64,000 nucleotides of DNA from NCBI GenBank assembly GCA_951406725.2, contig OX597826.1, positions 2,046,001-2,110,000 on the forward strand, written 5' to 3'. Source of the DNA: Octopus vulgaris. Taxonomy: Eukaryota. The position numbers and the translations under genes were made by a program. The notes below the pieces were generated by a model that saw only the letters and a list, made by a program, of their open reading frames with translations, was not told the origin of the DNA and searched no databases. Below are positions 4,635-60,916 of this stretch, piece after piece. Numbering within the stretch: the first letter of the stretch is position 1; the number at the start of each line of letters is the position of its first letter.

Positions 4635-4853
4635 AAGGGCGGCGAACTGGCAGAATCGTTAGCACGCCGGGCGAAATGCATAGCAATATTTCGTCTGCCT
4701 TTAATGTTCTGAGTTCAAATTCCACCGAGGTCAACTTTGCCTTTCATTCTTTTGAGGTCGATAAATTACATACCAGTTGCGTACTGGTGTCGATCTAATC
4801 GACTGGCTCCCACCACAAAATTTCGGGCCTTGTGCCTAGAGTAGAAAAGAATA
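4635..4853 (+). mobile_element. tRNA-derived SINE, family B, short-tail form
   Basis: Head GGCGGCGAACTGGCAGAATCGTTAGCACGCC, B box GAGTTCAAATTCC and core GCCTTTCATTCTTTTGAGGTCGATAAA; more than 10 homologous copies in the window. Confidence 0.9.
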
Positions 4854-11938: not shown

Positions 11939-12587
11939 AGCTGTGTGGTAAGTAGCTTGCTTAGCAACCACATGGTTCCGGGTTCAGTCCCACTGCTTGG
12001 CAACTTGGGCAAGTGTCTTCTTATTTCTTTATTGCCCACAGGGGGCTAAACACAGAAGGGACAAACAAGGATAGACAAACGGATTAAGTTGATTACATCG
12101 ACTCCAGGGCGTAACTGGTACTTAATTTATCGACCCCGAAAGGATGAAAGGCAAAGTCGATCTCGGCGGTATTTGAACTCAGAACGTTACGGCAGACGAA
12201 ATAAAGTTACGCATTTCGCTCGGCGTGCTAACGTTCCTGCCAGCTCGCCTTGGGCAAGTGTCTTCTACTATATCCTCGTGCCGACCAAAGCCTTGTGAGT
12301 GGATTTGGTAGACGGAAACTGAAAGAAGCCCACCGCATATATATATATATATATGTATATATATGTGCGTGTGCGTGCGTGTGTGTGTGTGTATGAATTT
12401 TTGTGTGTCTTTATTCCCTCATCATCGCTTGACAATCGATGTTGGTGTTTTTACGTCCCCGTAACTTAGCGCTTCGGCAAAAGGGAACGATAGGATAAGT
12501 ACTAGGCTTATAAAGAATAAGTTTTGTTCGACTAAAGGTGGTGCTCCAGCATAGCCGCAGTCAAATGACTGAAACGAGTAAAAGAAT
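11939..12587 (+). mobile_element. SINE family A interrupted by a nested family B insertion
   Basis: Family A sequence resumes in register after the insert; CTTGGGCAAGTGTCTTCT is duplicated at 12004-12021 and 12249-12266. Confidence 0.92.
12022..12248 (-). mobile_element. SINE family B, long-tail form, with 18-bp TSD
   Basis: Family B head and core, then tail TTTGTCTATCCTTGTTTGTCCCTTCT...GGGCAATAAAGAAATA, flanked by the 18-bp duplication. Confidence 0.92.
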
Positions 12588-13787: not shown

Positions 13788-14119
13788 CTTGGGCAAGTGT
13801 CTTCTGCTATAGCCTCGAGCCGACCAAAGCCATGTGAATGGATTTGGTAGACGGAAACTGAAAGAAGCTTGTTGTATATGTGTGTATATATATATGTATG
13901 TGTGTGTATATGTTTGTGTGTCTGTGTCTGTCCCCCTAGCATTGCTTGACAACCGATGTTGGTGTATTTACGTCCCTGTAACTTAGCGGTTCGGCAAAAG
14001 AGACCGATAGAATAAGTACTAGGCTTCCAAAGAATAAGACCTGGGGTCGATTTGCTCAGCTAAAGGCGGTGCTGCAGTATGGCCGCAGTTAAATGAATGA
14101 AACAAAAGAGAAAGAGAGA
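13788..14119 (+). mobile_element. SINE family A, 5'-truncated
   Basis: Runs from CCTTGGGCAAGTGTCTTC to the GAAACAAAAGAG tail. Confidence 0.9.
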
Positions 14120-18112: not shown

Positions 18113-18546
18113 AAATTAAACACTATTTTCCTCTGTCACACACACATACACACACATAGGCACACACACACACACAAACACATGCTGTAAAGAGGGGGGG
18201 CGACAAGTTTAAGATAAATGAAAGGAAAGAAGAGAGAGAAGAGAGAAAAAGAAACAATGAATGAAGAGAAAGAAAATTCTAGCAAAAGATTATAGGGGGA
18301 AGGTGTGAAGGATCGAACTCCGAGCAGACAGGGAACGAATCGTCGTCTGTTGTACAAACACTTGTTACTTGTATTGCGTACTCTTTCTCTCGTTTGCGAA
18401 TCTCGTAAGCATTAAAAAAATAATAATGAAGTACATAGGCAGAGGAGTGGTTGTGTGGTAAGAGATTTTGGTTTATAGGTTTATTGCTTATATATTTTTT
18501 ACACATAATTTTTCTGTATTCTATCTTCCACCCTGCATTTTTCCCT

Positions 18547-24300: not shown

Positions 24301-24794
24301 GTTGCTCGGGTGGAGTAGACAGTTCCGAGGCCGGTGGGGGCGCTGCTGGCTGAGATGTTGACTCTCGTCGTAGTATCAATAATTGTCGTGGAAATAGTAT
24401 AGGTGGTAGTTGGAATATTAATGGCTGCTGTGATGGTTCACGTTTTGGCTTGTTGCTGTCGTCGTGGTGTTGGTGAGAACGGGTTTGGGGCTGGCTGCGG
24501 TGGTAGAGGTATCAAATCCAGTTGGAAGGATGTAGTATGAGTGATGCTGGAGCTGGTTATTTTAGGAATGGTGTTGGAGGTGGCTGCGGAGGTAGTTGAG
24601 TTGGTGGTGATAATGGTGTTGCTTGTAGAAATGTTGGGGATTCTTAAAGCAGAGGATGCAGTTATTGTGATATTAGTAAGGTGACTTTTTAACGGGTGGA
24701 GAGCTGAACCATCCTGGGGTACAGAGGATTCGCAATCTAGACTAGGGTCTGAAAGTTTACCACACCATAGTGGGTAACACCATGGTTCCTCTGC

Positions 24795-25002
24795 TTTGTG
24801 GCAGAAGTAGGAAGAAAGAGTGAGAGAAAGTTGTGGTGAAAGAATACTGCGGGGTTCACCACCACCACCATCCACCGGAGCCTCGTGGAGCTTAGGTGCT
24901 TTTGCTCAATAAACACTCACAATGCCCGGTCTGGGAATCGAAACCGCGTTCTTACGACCGCGAGTCCGCTGCCCTAACCACTGCGCCATTGCGCTTCCAC
25001 GC
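24795..25002 (-). mobile_element. tRNA(Arg)-like SINE, family D variant, 5' part
   Basis: Minus strand TGGCGCAGTGGTTAGGGCAGCGGACTCGCGGTCG...GGTTTCGATTCC; homologous to 28305-28482 and 56077-56388. Confidence 0.85.
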
Positions 25003-25030
25003 TTGTTGCCGTTGCTATTTGTTACCAGCA

Positions 25031-25857
25031 AAGGCGGCCGGCTGGCAGAACCGTTAGCACGCCGGGCGAAATGCTTAGCGTATTTTGTCTGCCGTTATGT
25101 TCTGAGTCCAAATTCCGCCGAGGTCGACTTTGCCTTTCATCCTTTCGGGGTCGATAAATTAAGTACCAGTTACGCACCAGTGTCGATGTAATCGACTTAA
25201 TCCCTTTGTTTGTCCCTTCTATGTTTATCCCCTTGTGTGCAATAAAGAAATAAGAAAGTTAGCACGCCGGGCGAAATGCTTAGCGATATTTCGTCTGCCG
25301 CTACGTTCTGAGTTCAAATTCCGCCGAGGCGGACTTTGCCTTTCATCCTTTTTGGGTCGACTAAATAACTACCAGTTACGCTCTGGGGTCGATATAATCG
25401 ACTTAATCCATTTGTCTGTCATTGTTTGTCATATCTGTGTTAAGCTCCTTGTGGGTAGTAAAGAAATAGGTATTTCGTCTGCCGTAACGTCTGAGTTCAA
25501 ATTCTGCCGAGGTTGACTATGCCTTTCATCCTTTCGGAGTCAATAAATTAAGTACCAGTTACGCACTAGGGTCATGTAATCGATTTAATCCTTTTCTCTG
25601 TCCTTGTTTGTCGCCCTCTATGTTTAGCCCCTTGTGGGCAATAAAGAAATAAGAAACGTTGAGCACGCCGGGCGAAACGCTTAACGGCATTTCATATGTG
25701 TTTATGTTCTGAGTTCAAATTCTGCCGAGATTGACTTTGTCTTTCATTCTTTCTGGGTATATGACATACGTACCAGTTGAATACTGGGGTCGATATAATC
25801 GAGTTATCTCATCCCGCTGAACTTTCTGGTTTTGTGTCAAAATTTGAAGCCAATATT
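25031..25857 (+). mobile_element. Head-to-tail array of four family B SINE units (three long-tail, one terminal short-tail)
   Basis: Tails ending GAAATA at 25252, 25468 and 25651 are each followed by a 5'-truncated B head. Confidence 0.92.
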
Positions 25858-25909
25858 TGTTGTAGCTTCTGTAGTATCGCTTGATTTTGTGGTAATTAAT
25901 ATTGAAATA

Positions 25910-26160
25910 TCGGGTTCGAATCTCAGACCGGGTGATGTGAGTGTTTAAGAGCGAAACACCTAAGATTCACGCAGCTCCGGCAGATGGTAATGGCGAACTT
26001 CTGCTGACTCTTTCGCCAGAACTTTCTCTCACTCTTTCCTCCTGCATATTGCAGCTCACCTGCGACGGACCGGCATCCTGTTCAGGTGGGGATCTATACG
26101 CGAAGGAAACCGAGAAACAAGCCCTTATGAGTCAAGTATGACTCGAAAAGGAAGAAACAA
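25910..26160 (+). mobile_element. SINE family D, 5'-truncated
   Basis: Starts at the B box GGGTTCGAATCTC; colinear with 56130-56388. Confidence 0.88.
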
Positions 26161-26169
26161 TATTGTAAT

Positions 26170-27045
26170 AGTGGTTTCAGATTTTGGTACAAAGGCAACA
26201 ATTTCGAAGTAAGGAGTTTGTTGATTACATCGACCCCACTGCTAGACTGGTATTTATTCTGTCGAACCCATAAAGATTAAAATCAAACTTGACTTCAGGT
26301 GGATTTGAACCATAATGACGGACAAAATGTCGCTAAGGCCTTTTTGCCCGACATGCTAACGTTTCAGCCAGCTCACCGCTTTGATATTGTTGTAGCATTA
26401 AAGGGTTGCGCTGCTGGATGTCTGGGTATTAAATATTGGTTTAAAATTTTGGCACAATATCAGGAATTTCGGTGTGGTGAGCTAGTTGATTACATCAATC
26501 CCAGTATTCAACTGGTACTTATTTTAGCGGCTTCGAAAGGACGAAAATCAAAGCCAATCTTGGTGAAATTTGAAATCAGAGCGTAGGAGTGGCTGTGTGG
26601 TAAGTAGCTTGCTTACCACGTTCAGTCCCACTGCATGGCACCTTGGGGAAGTGTCTTCTACTATAGCCTCGGGCCGACCAAAGACTTGTAAGTGGATTTG
26701 GTAGATATATATATATATATATATATATACGTGTGTGTGTGTGTGTGTGTGTGTATATGTTTGTGTATCTGTGTTTCTCTCCCCAACATCGCTTGACAAC
26801 CGATGCTGGTGTGTTTACGTCCCCGTAACTTGGCGGTTCGGCAAAAGAGACCGATAGAATAAATATTAGGCTTACAAAGAATAAGTCCTGGGGTCGATTT
26901 GTTCGACTAAAGGCGGTGCTCCAGCATGGCCACAGTCAAATGGCTGAAACAAGTAAAAGAGTAAAAGAGAACTTAAAGATGAATGAAATTCCGCTAAGCA
27001 TTTTTGCCCAACATGCTAACTATTCTTCCAGCCCGCTGCCGCCTT
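26170..27045 (-). mobile_element. Two diverged family B copies, the second interrupted by a family A SINE
   Basis: B-like reverse sequence at ~26170-26385 and at ~26435-26580 plus 26970-27045. The flank TTGATATTGTTGTA.CATTAAAGG.TTGCGCTGCTGGATGT is also duplicated at ~26381 and ~27044. Confidence 0.75.
26581..26969 (+). mobile_element. SINE family A nested in a family B copy
   Basis: GCGTAGGAGTGGCTGTGTGG head to GTAAAAGAG tail; B sequence resumes afterwards. Confidence 0.9.
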
Positions 27046-30730: not shown

Positions 30731-31134
30731 AAAATTACGCTAATACAATCAACTTTAGAGCACCTCATGTGTGTGAAGGACATACAACGTTTGTGTTATC
30801 TTGTTCATTAGTTGTTTAATTCTAGATCCTTCTTGAATAAGCAACTATATATTCAAAGACGTTCCAAACATGTCCATCCTAGTGCATATTACTTCAATTA
30901 TGTATTTCTTTTATAAGATGTTAGTGTGTTATTCGAGAGACATTTGACTGCTGTTTACAGCAGTAAAGACTTGCCACAGAAGATAATGCAATTCGTACCA
31001 GATCCCATGTCGTCACATCCTGACACTGATAGCTCGTGCTAGCTTCAAAGCAATAGATTTTATTCTTAAATCTGCTGCCATACAAGACTTCAATATGGTA
31101 ATATGGTAATTGGAAGCATTATCGAAGATTTGTC

Positions 31135-31525
31135 CGGCAGTGAGCTAGCAGTAACTTTACAGTGCCGGACAAAATGCTTAGCGGTATTTCATCTGTCTTT
31201 ACGTTCTGAGTTCAAATTCCACCGAGGTCGACTTTGCCTTTCATCCTTTCGGGGTCGATTAAATAAGTACCAGTTACGCACTGGGGTCGATGTAATCGAC
31301 TTAATCCATTTGTCTGTCCTTGTTTGTCTTCTCTGTGTTCAGGGTAGTAAAGAAATAGGTATTTCATCTGTCTTTACATTCTGAGTTGAAATTCCACCGA
31401 GGTCGACTTTACCTTTCATTATTTCGACGCTGATAAATTGAAGTACCAGTTGCGCATTGGGGGTCGATGTAATCGACTACACACTTCCACCCAATTTCCA
31501 GCCTTGGGATTATGTTAGATATTAT
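31135..31525 (+). mobile_element. Long-tail family B unit (31203-31357) inserted in register into an older B copy
   Basis: GGTATTTCATCTGTCTTTAC is duplicated at 31183-31202 and 31358-31377. Confidence 0.88.
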
Positions 31526-31541
31526 CATTATTATTATTATT

Positions 31542-32080
31542 GAGTGAGAAATCATTGCATGCCATCAAAGTGAAACTGGGGTAAAATACACGAAGCCCAT
31601 CATGACTACTCGTCTGATAAGGGTACTCAAGGCACATGCATCACAAACATATGTACGCGACTTGGTGATCTCATATCAAGATAAACAGCACATGACCTTG
31701 CAGGTGGGGCCCCAGTTAGAATTTTCTTTCGGTCGAGTAACCCATCCCGCTCAAAAGGTCCCTGAATAAGGGTTGTTTAAGGATGTTGAACGAAACACCC
31801 ATTATCCCAGTGGTGAATTATTCAAACCCCAAAGAATCCCTCTCAACACATGGCTATGATGCTCCCCCACTACTTCTGCTCCTGATCAGAGATGCACATA
31901 TCGTCAGGCACTAAGGGACATGCTTTAACTAGTTAAAGTCATAGAACTGACAAGCAAATCTGTGGTATTCAGCAGAATATTTGCTGTAGCCCATCTTTTA
32001 TACCAAGACAAAACAATGTACATGATAACACTTCCTATCAGTTAAGATCAGAAGCCACGTGGGCCACTGCGTGGTACTGT
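31542..32080. mobile_element. Unclassified interspersed repeat between (ATT)n tracts
   Basis: Complex sequence flanked by (ATT)n; its left end recurs in reverse at 62918-62953, again inside (AAT)n. Confidence 0.6.
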
Positions 32081-32081
32081 A

Positions 32082-32163
<82 letters not shown>

Positions 32164-32287
32164 GTTATTGTTATTATTATTATTATTGTTATTGTTATTG
32201 TTGTTATTATTATTGTTATTGTTATTGTTATTGTTATTATTATTATTATTGTTATTGTTATTGTTGTTATTATTATTGTTATTGTTA

Positions 32288-32355
<68 letters not shown>

Positions 32356-32373
32356 GTTATTATTATTATTATT

Positions 32374-32585
32374 AAAGGCGGCAAGCTGGCAGAATCGGTA
32401 GCACGCCTTACAAGATGCTCAGGGGCATTTCGTCCGTCTTTATGTTCTGAGATCGTATACCGCCGAAGTCGACTTTACCTTTCATTCTTTCGGGGTCAAT
32501 AAAATGAAATATTAGCATCGATGTAATTGGCTAACACCCTCTCTCAAATTTTCAGGCCTTGCGCCTATATTAGAAAGGATTATTA
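32374..32585 (+). mobile_element. SINE family B, short-tail form
   Basis: Homologous to 4635-4853. Confidence 0.85.
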
Positions 32586-32605
32586 AATATTTGTTTATGA
32601 TTGTT

Positions 32606-33050: not shown

Positions 33051-33261
33051 ACTGAGACACTTCATAGGGAAACATTTCGAACTAAATTTCTTTCATTTCT
33101 TATATATTATTTATTAGTTTTTCATCGCGCCTTCTAAAACCCTTAAAATCACCAATTATCTTGTCCCAAGTCGGAAGTAATTAACCGTTTTAAATATTTA
33201 AATCCTTAAAAATGTTTTAGCCCGAAGGCCGCGGCCATGCTGGGGCACCACCGCTGTGAAA

Positions 33262-33663
33262 TTTTGGAAGAAAGGCAGTATGTTTGGGGATGGGCTAAGT
33301 CGATTAAACCAACCCTATTTTTCAACTGGTACTTATTTTATCGACTCCAAAGGGATGAAAGGCAAAGTCGACCCTGGCACAGTTTGAACTCAGAATGTAA
33401 AGCATTTTGCAAGGCATGCTAACGGTTCTTATTTCTTTATTGCCCAACAAGGGGCCAAACATAGAGGGGACGAAGAAGGACAGACAAAGGGATTAAGTCG
33501 ATTACATCGGCCCCAGTGTGTAACTGGTACTTAATTTATCGACCCCGAAAGAATGAAAGGCAAAGTCGACCTCGGCGGAATTTGAACTCAGAACTTAACG
33601 GCAGACGAAATACGGCTACGCGTTTCCCCCGGCGTGCAAACGTTTCTGTCAGATCGCCGCCTT
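33262..33663 (-). mobile_element. Long-tail family B unit (33430-33663) joined to an older B copy (33262-33429)
   Basis: Minus-strand junction GGGCAATAAAGAAATA|AGAACCGTTAGCATGCC. Confidence 0.88.
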
Positions 33664-38111: not shown

Positions 38112-38144
38112 GATTGGGATACATAAACATATATAAGGATACAT

Positions 38145-38183
38145 AGGCGCAGGAGTGGCTGTGTGGTAAGTAGCTTGCTAACC
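38145..38183 (+). mobile_element. 5' part (A box) of the family A SINE split by the LINE
   Basis: AGGCGCAGGAGTGGCTGTGTGGTAAGTAGCTTGCTAACC. Confidence 0.95.
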
Positions 38184-38572
38184 TCACTGACAGAAGAGTG
38201 ACTTTGCTTACCGTACTACGGTTTGGACGCGTTTTCTTCCCGGTAAGAATTTTGCTGTGTTGTTAATTGTTGAATTCCTACTACTGAAAATTTGCCATTA
38301 AACGTTGCCGAACTGTCTTGTTCTCCGGTTTTACCGGGAAGTAATTGAATAATTTCTTACCGTTGAACTGTTAGCCACTGTGGCTTTTTATTTACGTGAC
38401 TATACATAGTCCTGCCAGACTATTTTCGTGCCCCTCCCCCGAATGGGGGTGGGAATTGGAATTTTTGAACTACTTTTTTGAACTACTTTGGAAGAAAAAC
38501 TTTCTATAGGTTTCCCAGTTTTGTGGGAAACCAATACTCGTAATTTTTGTGTTGTCTAATTTCAACAGAATA

Positions 38573-39984
38573 ATGTCTGTTGAAATTATTCACGAAAGTA
38601 GTGCTCTTGAGGAGAGCAATGTTAAAAAATTTTCTGAGGTAGCCGCAGTGGCTACCGAGAAAATTGACATCGATGTCAACCAGCTCGTCGAGCTATTTAA
38701 AAAAATGCAAGAAAAGGGTGGTGATGTTAAAATATCACCCTCCGCCAGTATCGTGGAGACCGAGAAGCGGACCGTAGTGTTTAAAACTTTCTGTCCACAA
38801 AGCAGAAGGTTCAAACACTTTGAAAAAAGTACCATCGAGAAATGCCTGTCCCCGATTTGGAAGGACATCGTGTACGTCGCCAGGGGACGGGCATATGGCA
38901 CAGTGGATGTCCGCTTCTCGGGGAAAGAAATGGCCCGAGGGCATTCTGTAAACCCCCTAAAAACCAAGGAGGTGGTACTTTTTCCAAGCTATAGGGGACG
39001 CAGGACGTCCCGGGTCAGGATTGTAGAAGCCCCGCCGGAAGTTGATCCGGTAGAGGTAGTGGCCGCCCTATTATATAAAAGGGCGGACAAAATAAAAATA
39101 CTAGAAGTAACATGCTCTACCCCTCGATTTTGGCTCGGGCGTAACATTAATATATTAATTCAAGGAACAGCGGAGGACCTACAGCTCCTTCCTGAGAGGG
39201 TGCTCGTGGGCGAGAACGTAGCCCTCAGGGTACAGGTCGAAGGCCGAAAACCCACCTGTTACGCCTGCGGCGAAAAGGGCCACATTCGTGTAGACTGTCC
39301 AGACAAGCAAAAGAAACCGCAGACACCAGGCCCCTCAGATAATAAAAAAAGTCCCTACCCTTGCAAACACACCTAACCCTACAAAAAAAAAACACAAAAA
39401 ATCCCACTCCTGCTGTTACGGTGCCAACCCCAAAACAGACTGAAGAAAAAACCCAGCCCTCGCACTCACAAACCCCTACACTATTAAAACCTCCCACCCC
39501 CCTAAAAACTGCGGCGCCTACCGAACAAACTATTGCTACCCCAGACGATACCATGGAGGTATCAGAGGGGGGATTTACACCAGTTCGTAAAAGAATTCGT
39601 GCAGCATCCCCGTCCACATCCCCTACAAAAAATAATAAAAACAAAGACACACCACAGACACGGAAAAAAAAATCCCGCTCAACTGGCCCAGAAAAAGAAG
39701 ACAAAAAAGAAAATGAACTCATATTAATTGAATTCGACGCACAAGACAAATACATAAACGATATTGTGGTTCAGCATCAGTCAGCAAGACTGTACAACAA
39801 ATACAAAGATCGAAATAGACACGCGTGGATTGCGGAAACAACGTTCAAACAATTAAAAGACAGACACCCAAACGCCATCCGGCATGTCGCGAACTTTCCG
39901 GACTATCTGAAGAAAGAGGAGAAAGAAGGGGCCCACAAACGTGTGGTGAGGTCGGCCCCCACCTCTCCAACGAAATGTAAGTAG
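38573..39984 (+). pseudogene. LINE ORF1 (gag-like nucleic-acid-binding protein), one -1 frameshift near 39344-39373
   Basis: ATG at 38573, zinc knuckle CYACGEKGHIRVDC, then a Pro/Thr/Lys-rich continuation in the overlapping frame (39361-39984) ending 17 nt before ORF2. Confidence 0.85.
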
Positions 39985-40001
39985 AACTTTTACTTTTTGT
40001 A

Positions 40002-43000
40002 ATGGCTTCGCTTAACCTTGGTTGTTTAAATGTGCGTGGTCTGAGTTCGAAGTGGAAGCAGGCTTGTTTCCTCGACGACCTCAGATCACATGATATACAT
40101 GTGATGGTTGCTACAGAGACCAAGCTGGACAGCCTACAAACCTTCTCGCCTCTCCTGAATGGCTACGAGAAAATCATGTCTCCTGGCCAGACCGGAGGGC
40201 GAGGGGGCGTAGTGGTACTGATCCGTAAAGACTTGGCTCTACAGACAAGTACAGTCTATGTAGACCCAGAAGGTGGGCTGGTCGTCCTTGATGTGACATA
40301 CAGCAGTAAGGCCTTCAGGTTGATCGGACTATATGCACCTTGTGCTAGAGGTTTCCAAACTGATTTTTATCGGCGCCTAGAGGGCTTTCTCGTGACGTCG
40401 AAGACTTTAGTGATATTAGGGGACTTTAATGCTATCGTTGACGTACACATCGATAGCGTTGGCTCGATCTATAGGAAAGTGAACTCACGTCTCGTGGATC
40501 TGCTTAAGCGGTTTCAGCTAGTAGATCGTTACAGACTTGACCATCCGAACGTCCCAGAGTGGACCTGGATGAGTGGCGACGGAAGGTTCAAGTCTTATCT
40601 AGACAGGATAGTGATAAGAACTAGAGATAAGTCTAGTTTTAGTTGTCCACAGCTCGTCCAGGTGCCCTATACTGACCATAGAATGGTCACGTGTAGACTG
40701 GACATAGATAGCACACTTAAGATAGGAACCGGCTACTGGAAGCTGAACAAGTCTATTTTGACACGCGAGGCATACCGTAGCCGGATTAAGGTGTTAGTGC
40801 AGAGGGCGTTAACCGGAGCCGTGGTTAATAACCGGTGGTGGTTCACCCTCAAAAGAGCCATTCGATTCGAGTCCATTAGATTTAGTAAACAACTAAGACT
40901 AGATAGGGCTAGAATAGAAGGGCAACTAGTTAAGAACTTAGAGGAGGCGTTGAGGTTGGGCTCTGCATCTCACATTTTAGCGGCGAGAACGGCATTAGAC
41001 CGTCACCTCAAAACCAAACATGAGGGATGTAGAATCCGGGCTAAAGTACGAGCATTGGGCCGTGAGGGAATTAATGTTGCCGGATGGGCCCGTACGATAG
41101 AAACACAGCGTGGAAACGATGCCACAATTGGGTCTCTTGTTGATGAAAACGGATGCACGATCAAGAAGCGGGACGAGATGTGTGAGGCACTTCACAAGCA
41201 CTTCGCCGAGTTGTTCGGGAGGTGCGGGACGCTGGATCATGGTGAGGCCCTTAGGGACTTCCTGTCTGGTGGCCCGCGCCTCTCGACACGAGAGGCTGAG
41301 TGCTGTGAAGGGCCAATCACAGCCGAGGAAGTAATCGAAGTGTTGGGCAAGTGCCCCGGGGAGAAGTCGCCGGGTCTCGATGGTCTGCCCTATGAATTTT
41401 ATAGAAGTATGCCAGACTTGTTCGGGCACCTGCTGGCTAGCGTCTACGCCAACTGGCAGCAGAATGGGAGAATTCCCAAGTCTGCGAGCCGGGGGGCGGT
41501 GACGTTGATCAGGAAGGACCCGAACAAGGGGGACGAGATAGGGAACTTCAGGCCCATAACTCTGTTAAACACAGAGTTAAAGATTCTGGCCAAGGTGCTA
41601 GCAAAAAGGTTGGCGCGGGTCGTGGACAAACTTGTCGGGGAAGCGCAAACGTGCGCTATCCCCGGCAGAACGATCCACGACAATCCCCACCTTATACGCT
41701 ACTCCTTAGAGAGGGTGGGGAAGCTTTCTGGCGCAGGGGGAGCACTGGTACATTTAGACCAGTCCAAAACATTTGATAGGGTCGACCATCGGTACCTGGC
41801 GGCGGTCCTCGGAGAGGCTGGCCTAGGCCCGACCTTTCGAGGTTGGATCGCTGCTTTGTATAGCGACATCGAGTCTGTAGTCAAAGTGAACGGTTCCTTT
41901 TCGAAGCCGTTCAGGATCGAGCGTTCAGTTCGTCAAGAGTGCCCCCTGTCCTCGCTCCTATACGTATTGGCTCTTGAGCCTTTGCTGCGGGAGTTGGAGG
42001 CACTAGGGGCGCGCCGCATGATCTATGGTGTGGAAGAGGAGCTACGGCGTATGCGGATGACACCTCCATCATCGTGGCAGACGAAGGCCAGCTTCCAGTG
42101 GTGGAAGAGGCCATCAAAAGCTACGAGGCGGTGGCAGGAGCAAAGGTTAACAAGGACAAGTCGGTCGGTTTGCAACTCGGCACCTGGAGGGGCAAGCCGA
42201 TGCCGTCCAATAACGTCGTAGGGCGTTGGACGGAAGGTCCTGTTAAGCTGCTCGGAGTCTGGTTCGGGCCAGACCTCCAGATTGAGAAAAATTGGAGTGA
42301 GGTGGCCAACAAGGTGACCGCTCTAACCCAGACCTGGTCTGGGCGGGCGTTATCCCTGCTAGGGAAGGCGGAGGTGGTGCAGATGTTTATAGCATCAGTA
42401 ATCACCTACCGTCTGACCGTGGTGCCTTGCCCCGATTTGTGGCTGAACAAGTTGGAGAGAATCCTTTTCCGATTTTTGTGGAAAGGAGGAAGGCCACTTG
42501 TAAAGCGCTCTGTCTGCTGCCAGAAACCGCTAAAGGGTGGGCTAGGGATGCCTTGGCTGAGGATGCGAAAACTCGCGTTAAGGTTGAGGCACCTCTGGCT
42601 TTACCTGGATGGAGAGCAGGTGTGGCCACCGCACGTCCTGTTCTACCTTCCCCAGTTAACATCCCTAACGGACATCGGTGCATGGATCAAGCGGAGACCT
42701 AAACTGAGTGAATGGCATTTGGAGTGCCGTCAGGCGCTCCAGCTACTATCTCGGGTGGGCAACGCCGGCAACAGGAGTTCCACCACGGATTTCTATAGCG
42801 GGTTAGTGGAGATTAAGTCCGAAGACGCCTTGGAGGAGACCCTGGGCTACGATGAAAATCAGTTGGTCAACCTGTTCCGGAGGACGTTCGGGCCGGGGTA
42901 TCTGGATAATTACCAGAAATCCCTGGCCTGGCAGTGTTTCCGTGCGGCTTTACCTGTTCGCGACAAGCTGTCAAGGCACGGTAGTGTCGTCTCGCCGACA

Positions 43001-43402
43001 TGCCCGCGATGTGAGCAGGATAGGGAGACCGTCTTGCACGCATTCGTGGAGTGTCCGGAGTTATCGGGACTGATAGCTTTTGTTGAACAACTGTTGTCAG
43101 TGATGGGAAGAGTACAGCTATCAGCTGAGTCTATCATCGAGACTGTGCCGCCCCCTTTCCTTAACAGGGAAAGAAAGGCTTGTTTTTTCTGTGTAGTAGC
43201 CATACTGAAAGAAACAGTATGGAAGACGCGTACGAAAGGTATAGTGACAGGGACCTTTGTCTCCGGCCAGGGGTTGATTAACTTTTTTAGTTACCACCTC
43301 AGTAGCAAAATCAGGCTGGAGAAGAGGTGTCTGTCACGAGATATGTTTGCGAAAAGATGGAAGCCTGTGGCATACAAGATGGGTATGTTTGGCACCAGGT
43401 AA
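40002..43402 (+). pseudogene. LINE ORF2: AP endonuclease + reverse transcriptase + CCHC, one -1 frameshift near 42006-42009
   Basis: APE motifs NVRGL, YAP, GDFN, LDR and TDH; GYWKLN; RT motifs KSPGLDG, NFRPITLLN, DQSKTFDRV and QECPLS; AYADD at 42047-42061 in the second frame; C-terminal CPRC...HAFVEC. Confidence 0.95.
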
Positions 43403-43630
43403 GTGTGACCGGATCAGAAAGTAAAGGTTCTACCCGGATGGCTGGGTGTCCGTCCTTCGACATGATCATTAATATTTTTAAACATTGCCTTCGTAAAATT
43501 CATTGTTTATAATCTTACCCGTAATTTCATTCGAAAATTGTAACTGTGTTAAGCTACTTCACCCTTTATATTTGTCTGTCCTTGTTTGTCCCCTCTTTGT
43601 AAATGCCTAAATGGCAAATTATATGAAATA

Positions 43631-43773
43631 AAGTAGCTTGCTAACCAACCACATGGTTCTGGGTTCAGTCCCACTGCGTGGCATCTTGGGCAAGTGTCTT
43701 CTGCTATAGCCCCGGGCCGACCAATGCTTTGTGAGTGGATTTGGTAGACGGAAACTGAAAGAAGCCTGTCGTA

Positions 43774-43826
<53 letters not shown>

Positions 43827-44020
43827 CTGTGTTTGTCCCCCTAGCATTGCTTGACAACCGATGCTGGTGTGTTTACGTCCCCGTCACTTAGCGGTTCGGC
43901 AAAAGAGACCGATAGAATAAGCACTGGGCTTACAAAGAATAAATCCCGGGGTCGATTTGCTCGACTAAAGGCGGTGCTCCAGCATGGCCGCAGTCAAATG
44001 ACTGAAACAAGTAAAAGAGT
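43631..44020 (+). mobile_element. 3' part of the family A SINE split by the LINE
   Basis: Continues ACCACATGGTTCTGGGTTCAGTCCC to the GTAAAAGAGT tail. Confidence 0.95.
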
Positions 44021-60732: not shown

Positions 60733-60916
60733 TCAGACAAAGGGATGAAGTCGATTATTTCGACCCCGGTGCGTAACTGGTACTTAATTTATCGATCCCC
60801 AAAGGATGAAAGGCAAAGTCGACCTCGGCGGAATTTGAACTCAGAACGTAGCGACAAACGAATTACCGCTAAGCATTTCGCCCGGCGTGCTAACGTTTCT
60901 GCCAGTTCGCCGCCTT
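60733..60916 (-). mobile_element. SINE family B with a truncated long tail
   Basis: Clean head and core; the tail breaks off after CCCTTTGTCTG. Confidence 0.88.

Follow-up and report, generated by a model that had tools for sequence, protein, structure and literature searches.

Introduction

Judged by analogy, the nearest known system to the one described here is SINEU with Tx1-Mar of crocodilians, as set out in the consulted parts of the original report (Kojima, 2015; PMC4494074). There too a SINE is thought to be moved by Tx1 elements and another repeat is preferred as the target. Two positions are preferred, their family-specific use is ascribed to different Tx1 partners, and tandems are attributed to sequential insertion. 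In the same parts of the report, SINEU copies have snRNA (U1/U2) heads and poly(A) tails, Mariner is the target, no LINE with a common 3' end was found, and the tandems sandwich a visible target-site duplication (TSD).

Sense insertion into its own family is also known for Alu, mainly at one position and in nearly 19,000 cases (PMC2836564, as excerpted). The hotspot is an internal A-rich linker and is explained by the L1 endonuclease together with poly(A) priming at this single site; the excerpted sections mention neither a coupling to tail subtype nor an in-register 5' joint. Sense self-insertions were omitted from the orientation analysis of this survey of nesting in the human genome, being hard to tell from fragments (PMC2836564). 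For R2 RNA that carries upstream 28S sequence, the cDNA has been proposed to anneal to the target, which gives precise 5' junctions (>80% in vivo); R2 is autonomous, targets 28S rDNA and owes its homology to co-transcription, according to the sections available (PMC3774820). Unit stacks are formed as well by Dip tandem SINEs, which consist of full-length units, and by SINE satellites, which the available sections ascribe to DNA-level duplication (PMC10702118).

Mollusc SINEs are treated in two papers available in part (PMC4758252, PMC4824008), and the SINE share of the Octopus vulgaris assembly is 11.6% (PMC13282606). In the portions available, the 2026 octopus annotation counts 80 L1-Tx1 families and places a SINE/LINE burst at JC 0.065; the word 'nested' is absent from those portions of its text and supplement (PMC13282606). 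A Tx1-tailed SINE occurs neither in the consulted parts of a review of SINE/LINE partners (PMC3747384) nor in those of SINEBase (PMC3531059), and no self-targeting cephalopod SINE is described in the literature searched, Repbase reports and subscription papers aside.

Here we describe a SINE family, referred to as family A, in a window of 64,000 nucleotides (the whole stretch of DNA analysed), where long-tail copies are joined end to end with the heads of other copies of the same family. Family A has a putative tRNA-like head, a LINE-like tail, its own head as target and a seamless 5' joint, and so lacks the features that define SINEU. In contrast to Dip tandems and SINE satellites, its array units are cut at the 5' side at two fixed internal positions. 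Compared with R2, the homology between element and target would be intrinsic, the two being one family. Octopus tRNA-derived SINEs named OK, OR1 and OR2 were reportedly described by Ohshima and Okada in 1994. The families treated here may be among them, and the genomes are probably the same.

Family A and its 3' end

The window is eukaryotic DNA, rich in microsatellites, and holds three SINE-like families, of which family A spans ~3.3 kb. Its copies are built on a single head and body, with either a long or a short tail. The long tail ends in GAAATA and occurs in two subtypes, A (CAATAAAGAAATA) and B (GGGTAGTAAAGAAATA); the short tail ends in TATT-type repeats. With a length of ~220 bp, at least 12 loci in the window, no open reading frame of 120 aa across the array described below, and 300,000-520,000 contigs per contig run that match the array stretch at 80% likeness (these counts being incomplete), family A lies within the bounds taken for a SINE (<700 bp, at least 100 copies, non-coding).

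The head may be tRNA-like. The ends of the 89-nt head pair in the manner of an acceptor stem in both of two folds, with no cloverleaf. ARAGORN reported no tRNA in the head, and Rfam gave neither a tRNA nor an snRNA match to it, the matches returned (up to E 5) all being under gathering scores. The words that we take to be its A and B boxes were assigned by eye.

There are 86 GAAATA hexamers in the whole window. The role of this word at the 3' end is fixed by two insertions outside the family's own heads, where exact GAAATA ends are accompanied by TSDs of 16-18 nt. The first is a long-tail A copy (12022..12248, minus strand) that lies antisense in the second SINE family, between the two repeats of an 18-nt TSD (12249-12266 and 12004-12021). 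Flanked by a TSD and with a 3' end common with a LINE, it has the structure expected of a SINE. The second is the LINE described in the next section. Because TSDs flank both, GAAATA is the true 3' end, and the joints in the array are consequently clean end-to-target joins of the target-primed-reverse-transcription type. A second-family copy (13788-14105) starts at the position that also marks one end of the 12022 TSD, and no family-A head lies upstream of it. A long-type family-A copy at 60734-60916 is broken inside the tail on its 3' side and has no GAAATA end.

The sequences suggest that short-tail copies used another partner, with an (ATT)n preference; Dong/R4 would be a candidate. At 32082-32589, a 290-bp TATTAT tract terminates in a short-tail copy, which itself ends in TATT repeats. 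The loose 5' flanks of matching contig pieces are AT-rich.

A LINE with a related tail

A full-length LINE (38184..43630, plus strand) was identified in the head of a second-family SINE copy (region 38141-44010). It lies directly behind the A-box-like word of that family and is flanked by a perfect 16-nt TSD (38168-38183 and 43631-43646). Pfam matches give the architecture of the L1 group, with a CCHC knuckle in ORF1 and an AP endonuclease, reverse transcriptase (RT) and zinc finger in ORF2; both ORFs appear frameshifted. The closest solved relative is human LINE-1 ORF2p (E=2.5e-52, vs 1e-16 for R2), which places the element in the L1/Tx1 group. Neither Atlas nor NCBIfam gave a clade name, and 'Tx1' is a label that we assume for it. 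The LINE protein has its best named relative in Argonauta hians (54% over 57% of the query), so the window is likely to come from an octopod. Two proteins that are 55% identical to its C-terminal part (P0096 and P0113) are assigned to a bacterial MAG (Herbaspirillum sp.), a placement that is probably host contamination.

The 3' end of the LINE (43570..43630) has ~30 nt in common with the SINE long tails; it also has a small hairpin and the GAAATA terminus. None of 1000 shuffles was as good for any of the five long tails tested, and homology to the short tail was not significant for either of the two tested. The hairpin is present in the minimum-energy folds of the LINE and of the 12022 copy, with z-scores from -2.1 to +0.2 over seven tails, so that folding is only suggestive of its conservation. 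The window LINE, a single copy, has a third tail type and a third landing site. Because its terminal tail differs, it is a relative of the SINE partner and not the partner itself; no related LINE loci with flanks were found.

Two further observations concern the second SINE family. A head of this family at 18433-18462 stops 3 nt past the site at which the LINE inserted (TGGT/AAG, the slash marking the nick), with no remainder or LINE fragment nearby. The 3' part of the family (43865-43960) resembles the end of the family-A body (25150-25195) by eye, which suggests a common module.

The array and its joints

The array at 25031-25870 comprises four plus-strand units of family A. Its joints at 25252, 25468 and 25651, and those at 31357 and 33430 (minus strand), have the coordinates and tail ends that an earlier note on this DNA had given. 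Unit 1 (25031..25252) has a full head, body and long tail A with a ~13-nt tail deletion, and differs from the long-tail leave-one-out consensus at 5 of 98 positions. Unit 2 (25253..25468; 10/98 differences) begins at head position 17 and ends in long tail B, and unit 3 (25469..25651; 6/96) begins at head position 50 and ends in long tail A. Unit 4 (25652..~25857) begins again at position 17 and is of the short-tail, more diverged subtype, with the short-type letter in 10 of 12 diagnostic columns and 15/98 differences. Landing site 17 (TGGC/AGAA, 25043..25050 in unit 1) falls within the A-box-like word of the head; site 50 lies 33 nt further in, matching the spacing of about 33 nt noted earlier.

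Unit 4 would be the original host of the array, and head positions 1-16 of unit 1 would belong to the oldest host. An 8-nt word at 25016..25023 recurs at 25854-25861 and could conceivably be a decayed TSD of the original host. The array lies between minus-strand copies of the third SINE-like family (24791-25010 and 25911-26043). At 26167-27040 there are two minus-strand short-tail family-A copies with ~40 nt of common upstream flank (a local duplication), one of which is split by a second-family SINE at 26581-26952.

Five of the six complete family-A long tails are joined to the family's own head. Tail A runs into position 17 at three of its four ends (25252, 25651 and 33430, minus strand); the fourth, that of the minus-strand 12022 copy, abuts AGAAG of the second SINE family. 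Tail B runs into position 50 at both of its ends (25468 and 31357), where GGTATTTC comes next. The five downstream neighbours of these self-joints are all different. As the earlier note had observed, every complete long-tail GAAATA end (seven of seven; six SINE and one LINE) abuts SINE DNA. With a rough count of ~13 heads as targets, the chance of landing in the own head at three of four loci is P ~3e-11 when all 128,000 sites are allowed and 2e-4 when only the 698 sites with the motif described below are.

It had also been claimed that the tail subtype sets the site. The pairing itself stands (A with 17 at 3/4, B with 50 at 2/2); exclusivity does not follow from the tail-by-site table (3/0/0/2), which gives a Fisher p = 0.10 in the window, or from the public runs, where cross-joints were incompletely counted. 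Judging from these junctions, the landing site is likely to be decided by the tail subtype.

The four distinct landing sites (TGGT/AAGT, TAGT/AGAA, TGGC/AGAA and TAGC/GGTA) conform to TRGY/RR. Random four-site SINE sets scored as high in 8 of 200,000 cases at -4/+4, and in 196 and 112 of 200,000 at wider windows, for a motif that was picked after the sites were seen. When six units were scanned on the sense strand, positions 17 and 50 were the only TRGY/RR matches in two near-intact copies; three units matched at 17 only and one had none. The site-50 word is absent from most copies, and the intact short-tail copy at 4637 has TRGY/RR at both sites, both of them unused. Sites 17 and 50 may be read by one endonuclease or by closely related ones.

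Probable insertion into older copies

At 31357, a new copy is shown to have inserted into an older one, the 5' joint being seamless. The chimeric unit there (31136..31357, plus strand) has an old head (12/48 differences), a young body (4/98) and tail B with a 10-nt deletion. The contrast between head and body is significant (Fisher p=3e-4; CpG-masked p=0.003) and is absent in all eight other copies tested. The unit has short-type letters as far as column 67, and the downstream short-tail host remnant (31358..31530, plus strand) begins at position 50. A hidden TSD (31183..31202) is identical at 20/20 positions with 31358-31377 and carries short-type letters; it pairs unit positions 50-69 with the start of the downstream host and is the sole mismatch-free pair among 78. 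No T4 terminator occurs in 31134-31560, and read-through is therefore possible there. At the third composite locus, a long-tail A unit (33430..33663, minus strand) is joined to position 17 of a short-tail copy, whose downstream remnant (33230..33429, minus strand) has an internal deletion of ~22 nt.

A hidden TSD is clear at one of the five self-joints. The other four share identical prefixes of 1-4 nt, with identity over 20 nt of 15/20 at 33430 and 17/20 between units 2 and 3. No leftover partial head was found upstream at any of the three composite loci, and neither an empty site nor an orthologous allele was present among the listed contig pieces from public runs, none of which spans the array. 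A search for outer TSDs gave the 8-nt word at the array, 6-nt words at 31136 and none at 33663. The earlier note had proposed one outer TSD as a mark of dimers moving as a unit; the mark does not discriminate, because an old host keeps its own TSD and an outer duplication is expected under both models.

CpG-masked distances to the own leave-one-out consensus are 2.5-9% for seven long-tail units and 10-23% for eight short-tail copies. The ranges do not overlap (p=7e-4), although the short-tail copies may mix subfamilies, which would inflate their apparent age. At all three composite loci the last unit is a short-tail copy and more diverged (15/98, 18/98 and 17/99 vs 6/96, 4/98 and 3/98), as had been reported. 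Comparison of upstream and downstream units, which the earlier note had called for, separates them at the 31357 and 33430 loci (p = 0.0025, 0.0015); at the array it falls short (p = 0.063). Among units 1, 2 and 3 the ages are not distinct (Fisher p = 0.28, 0.44). If the organism is the same, the age of the burst at JC 0.065 resembles that of the long-tail units (PMC13282606, in the portions available).

The same joints in public sequencing runs

Public runs were compared with 24990-25910 at 80% likeness. Three contig runs (organisms A, B and C) were used, and a raw-read run (X21, 14 reads) was left out. Among the 24 contig pieces listed, three (13-18 differing letters) bridge the same joints with at least 31 letters on each side: tail A to site 17 in organisms B and C, and tail B to site 50 in organism B. 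Two of the listed pieces end tail A and then run into unlike DNA; thus, tail A also lands elsewhere.

In organisms A, B and C, the bin that covers the B joint has a depth of 28.6, 25.1 and 0.67 million. According to our own k-mer model of summed contig depth, this is 5.4, 4.3 and 5.9 times the expectation for unrelated flanks (all three contig runs), and a share of at least 82-86% has to cross the joint. Relative to the old-type bin the depth is 5.1, 4.0 and 0.12, so the B joint is ~35-40-fold rarer in organism C. From a step of ~1 million per word, with contig depths near 50, the copy number in organisms A and B can be roughly put at the order of 10^4. In organism C (X9), 0.42-0.65 of the A tails run into site 17, by model. 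A corresponding share of 0.21-0.26 for X1 and X4 was dropped, as tail-B words likely inflate the denominator via the unit-3 tail. At position 25486, one letter makes up 94% of the X1 depth.

No cross-joints (A to 50, B to 17) or doubled heads were seen among the 15 joints listed of 4309, a set in which counts are incomplete and short contigs may not register, and which is not taken as support. Exact scans found the tail pattern in no metagenome or viral contigs and the core pattern in no metagenome, genome or viral contigs. Plasmids and phages gave no match.

Origin of the composite loci

The earlier note had proposed serial, site-preferring retrotransposition into older copies, and this is supported by the 3' ends fixed by TSDs, the 31357 chimera, the differing neighbours, the TRGY/RR motif and the same joints found elsewhere in three organisms. 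In terms of mechanism, we consider it probable that family A inserts serially into its own head by target priming at TRGY/RR words, the 5' side being joined in register. Such words would be nicked by the enzyme of an L1/Tx1-group LINE, a cut preference read from four sites; the long tail ends like the 3' UTR of the LINE found here. In-register pairing between the front end of the new copy and the homologous host would leave no second head. With the duplication hidden, the product would be an old head, a young body and tail, and an old remainder, as seen at 31357 and presumed at the other loci. Joining of this kind is plausible given the cDNA/target heteroduplex proposed for R2 in the sections available (PMC3774820). 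The array would have begun with the short-tail host (unit 4), followed by insertion of A at 17, B at 50 and A at 17.

An alternative that we regard as unlikely is that composite (dimeric) SINEs arose once or a few times and spread whole, the pairing of tail and site being inherited from the source copy. It is possible that a head with tail B and a position-50 A unit (units 2 and 3) moved as one: the two are similar in age (10/98 vs 6/96, p=0.44) and differ at 3 of the 19 positions where a TSD would lie. The prevalence of one letter at 25486 in X1 suggests that a homogeneous long-type unit follows many B tails, the B joint is expanded only in organisms A and B, and the lack of a T4 terminator in 31134-31560 would permit read-through. 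A dimer is at odds with tail B at 31357, which precedes a short-type host with an old head and the 20/20 duplication. The units at 31357 and 33430 are not of equal age and do not appear to have moved as one, all five downstream units differ, and the cut motif common to the LINE and the 12022 copy would be left unexplained.

We give still less credence to template jumping, whereby the RT, having copied one RNA as far as position 17 or 50, switches to a long-tail RNA at its 3' end and delivers both units at once. Such jumps would produce clean joints from tail to internal position with no second head, and have been invoked for 5' additions to SINEU in the consulted parts of that report (PMC4494074). 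They predict equal ages and a young head; the 31357 locus instead has a young middle between an old head and an old downstream unit. Nor do they explain fixed positions that match the motif of TSD-flanked insertions.

Tandem duplication or unequal crossover at the DNA level, as in the SINE-derived satellites known in reptiles (PMC10702118, in the sections available), is very improbable. The periodicity that TRF detects over the array (period 183, 2.0 copies, 83%, at 25287-25651) is what such events would leave. The units are not local duplicates, however: they have three different tails and different subtypes, and unit 3 is 88-89% like dispersed copies vs 83-84% like its array neighbours. Each joint lies precisely where a retrotransposed copy has its 3' end, and such joints are met again at dispersed loci, on either strand and in further organisms. 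An assembly artefact, conceivable in that none of the listed contig pieces spans the array, is hardly credible for units that are 79-84% alike (longest exact repeat 28 nt) and for joint types that are found again at loci away from the array and among the contigs of other runs.

Choice of landing site

Within the preferred account of serial self-insertion, the coupling of tail and site could have several sources. Different partner enzymes are a reasonable possibility, short of probable; one partner per tail fits, since both the tail and the site of the LINE are of a third kind. Somewhat more tentatively, read-through RNA may pair with the nicked target, which fits because there is no T4 stop at 31134-31560 and because the off-target site of the 12022 copy starts with AGAA. 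One enzyme together with such pairing would fit equally well as separate partners. That the coupling is a founder effect of few composite source copies seems rather doubtful.

A related idea, which we also hold to be on the unlikely side, is that the landing site is inherited through the RNA. A copy at site 17 or 50 would be transcribed through into its host; the read-through letters would pair with the nicked target and the head with the other strand, and lineages would revisit the site of their founder. If this is true, the promoters of older SINEs would be seamlessly taken over without a new endonuclease, and a new lineage of tail and site would have reached ~10^4 copies in some octopus-like genomes and not in a relative.

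Implications

The proposed self-insertion system would be a variation on the theme of SINEU/Tx1-Mar and of Alu self-insertion. It would add a SINE with a 3' end common to a Tx1-like LINE, a combination not met in the literature searched. The composite loci resemble partial tandem duplications, and standard repeat annotation would miss or mis-date them. They would also offer many natural replicates for weighing endonuclease specificity vs RNA-DNA pairing as the chooser of sites in retrotransposition of the L1/Tx1 group.

If the proposed mechanism is true, a very abundant SINE owes part of its growth to the overwriting of older copies of the same family, and younger copies may take over the promoters of older ones. 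The old head would be kept, and the young body and tail would come first in any transcript. Thus, an overwritten locus would likely switch its LINE partner.
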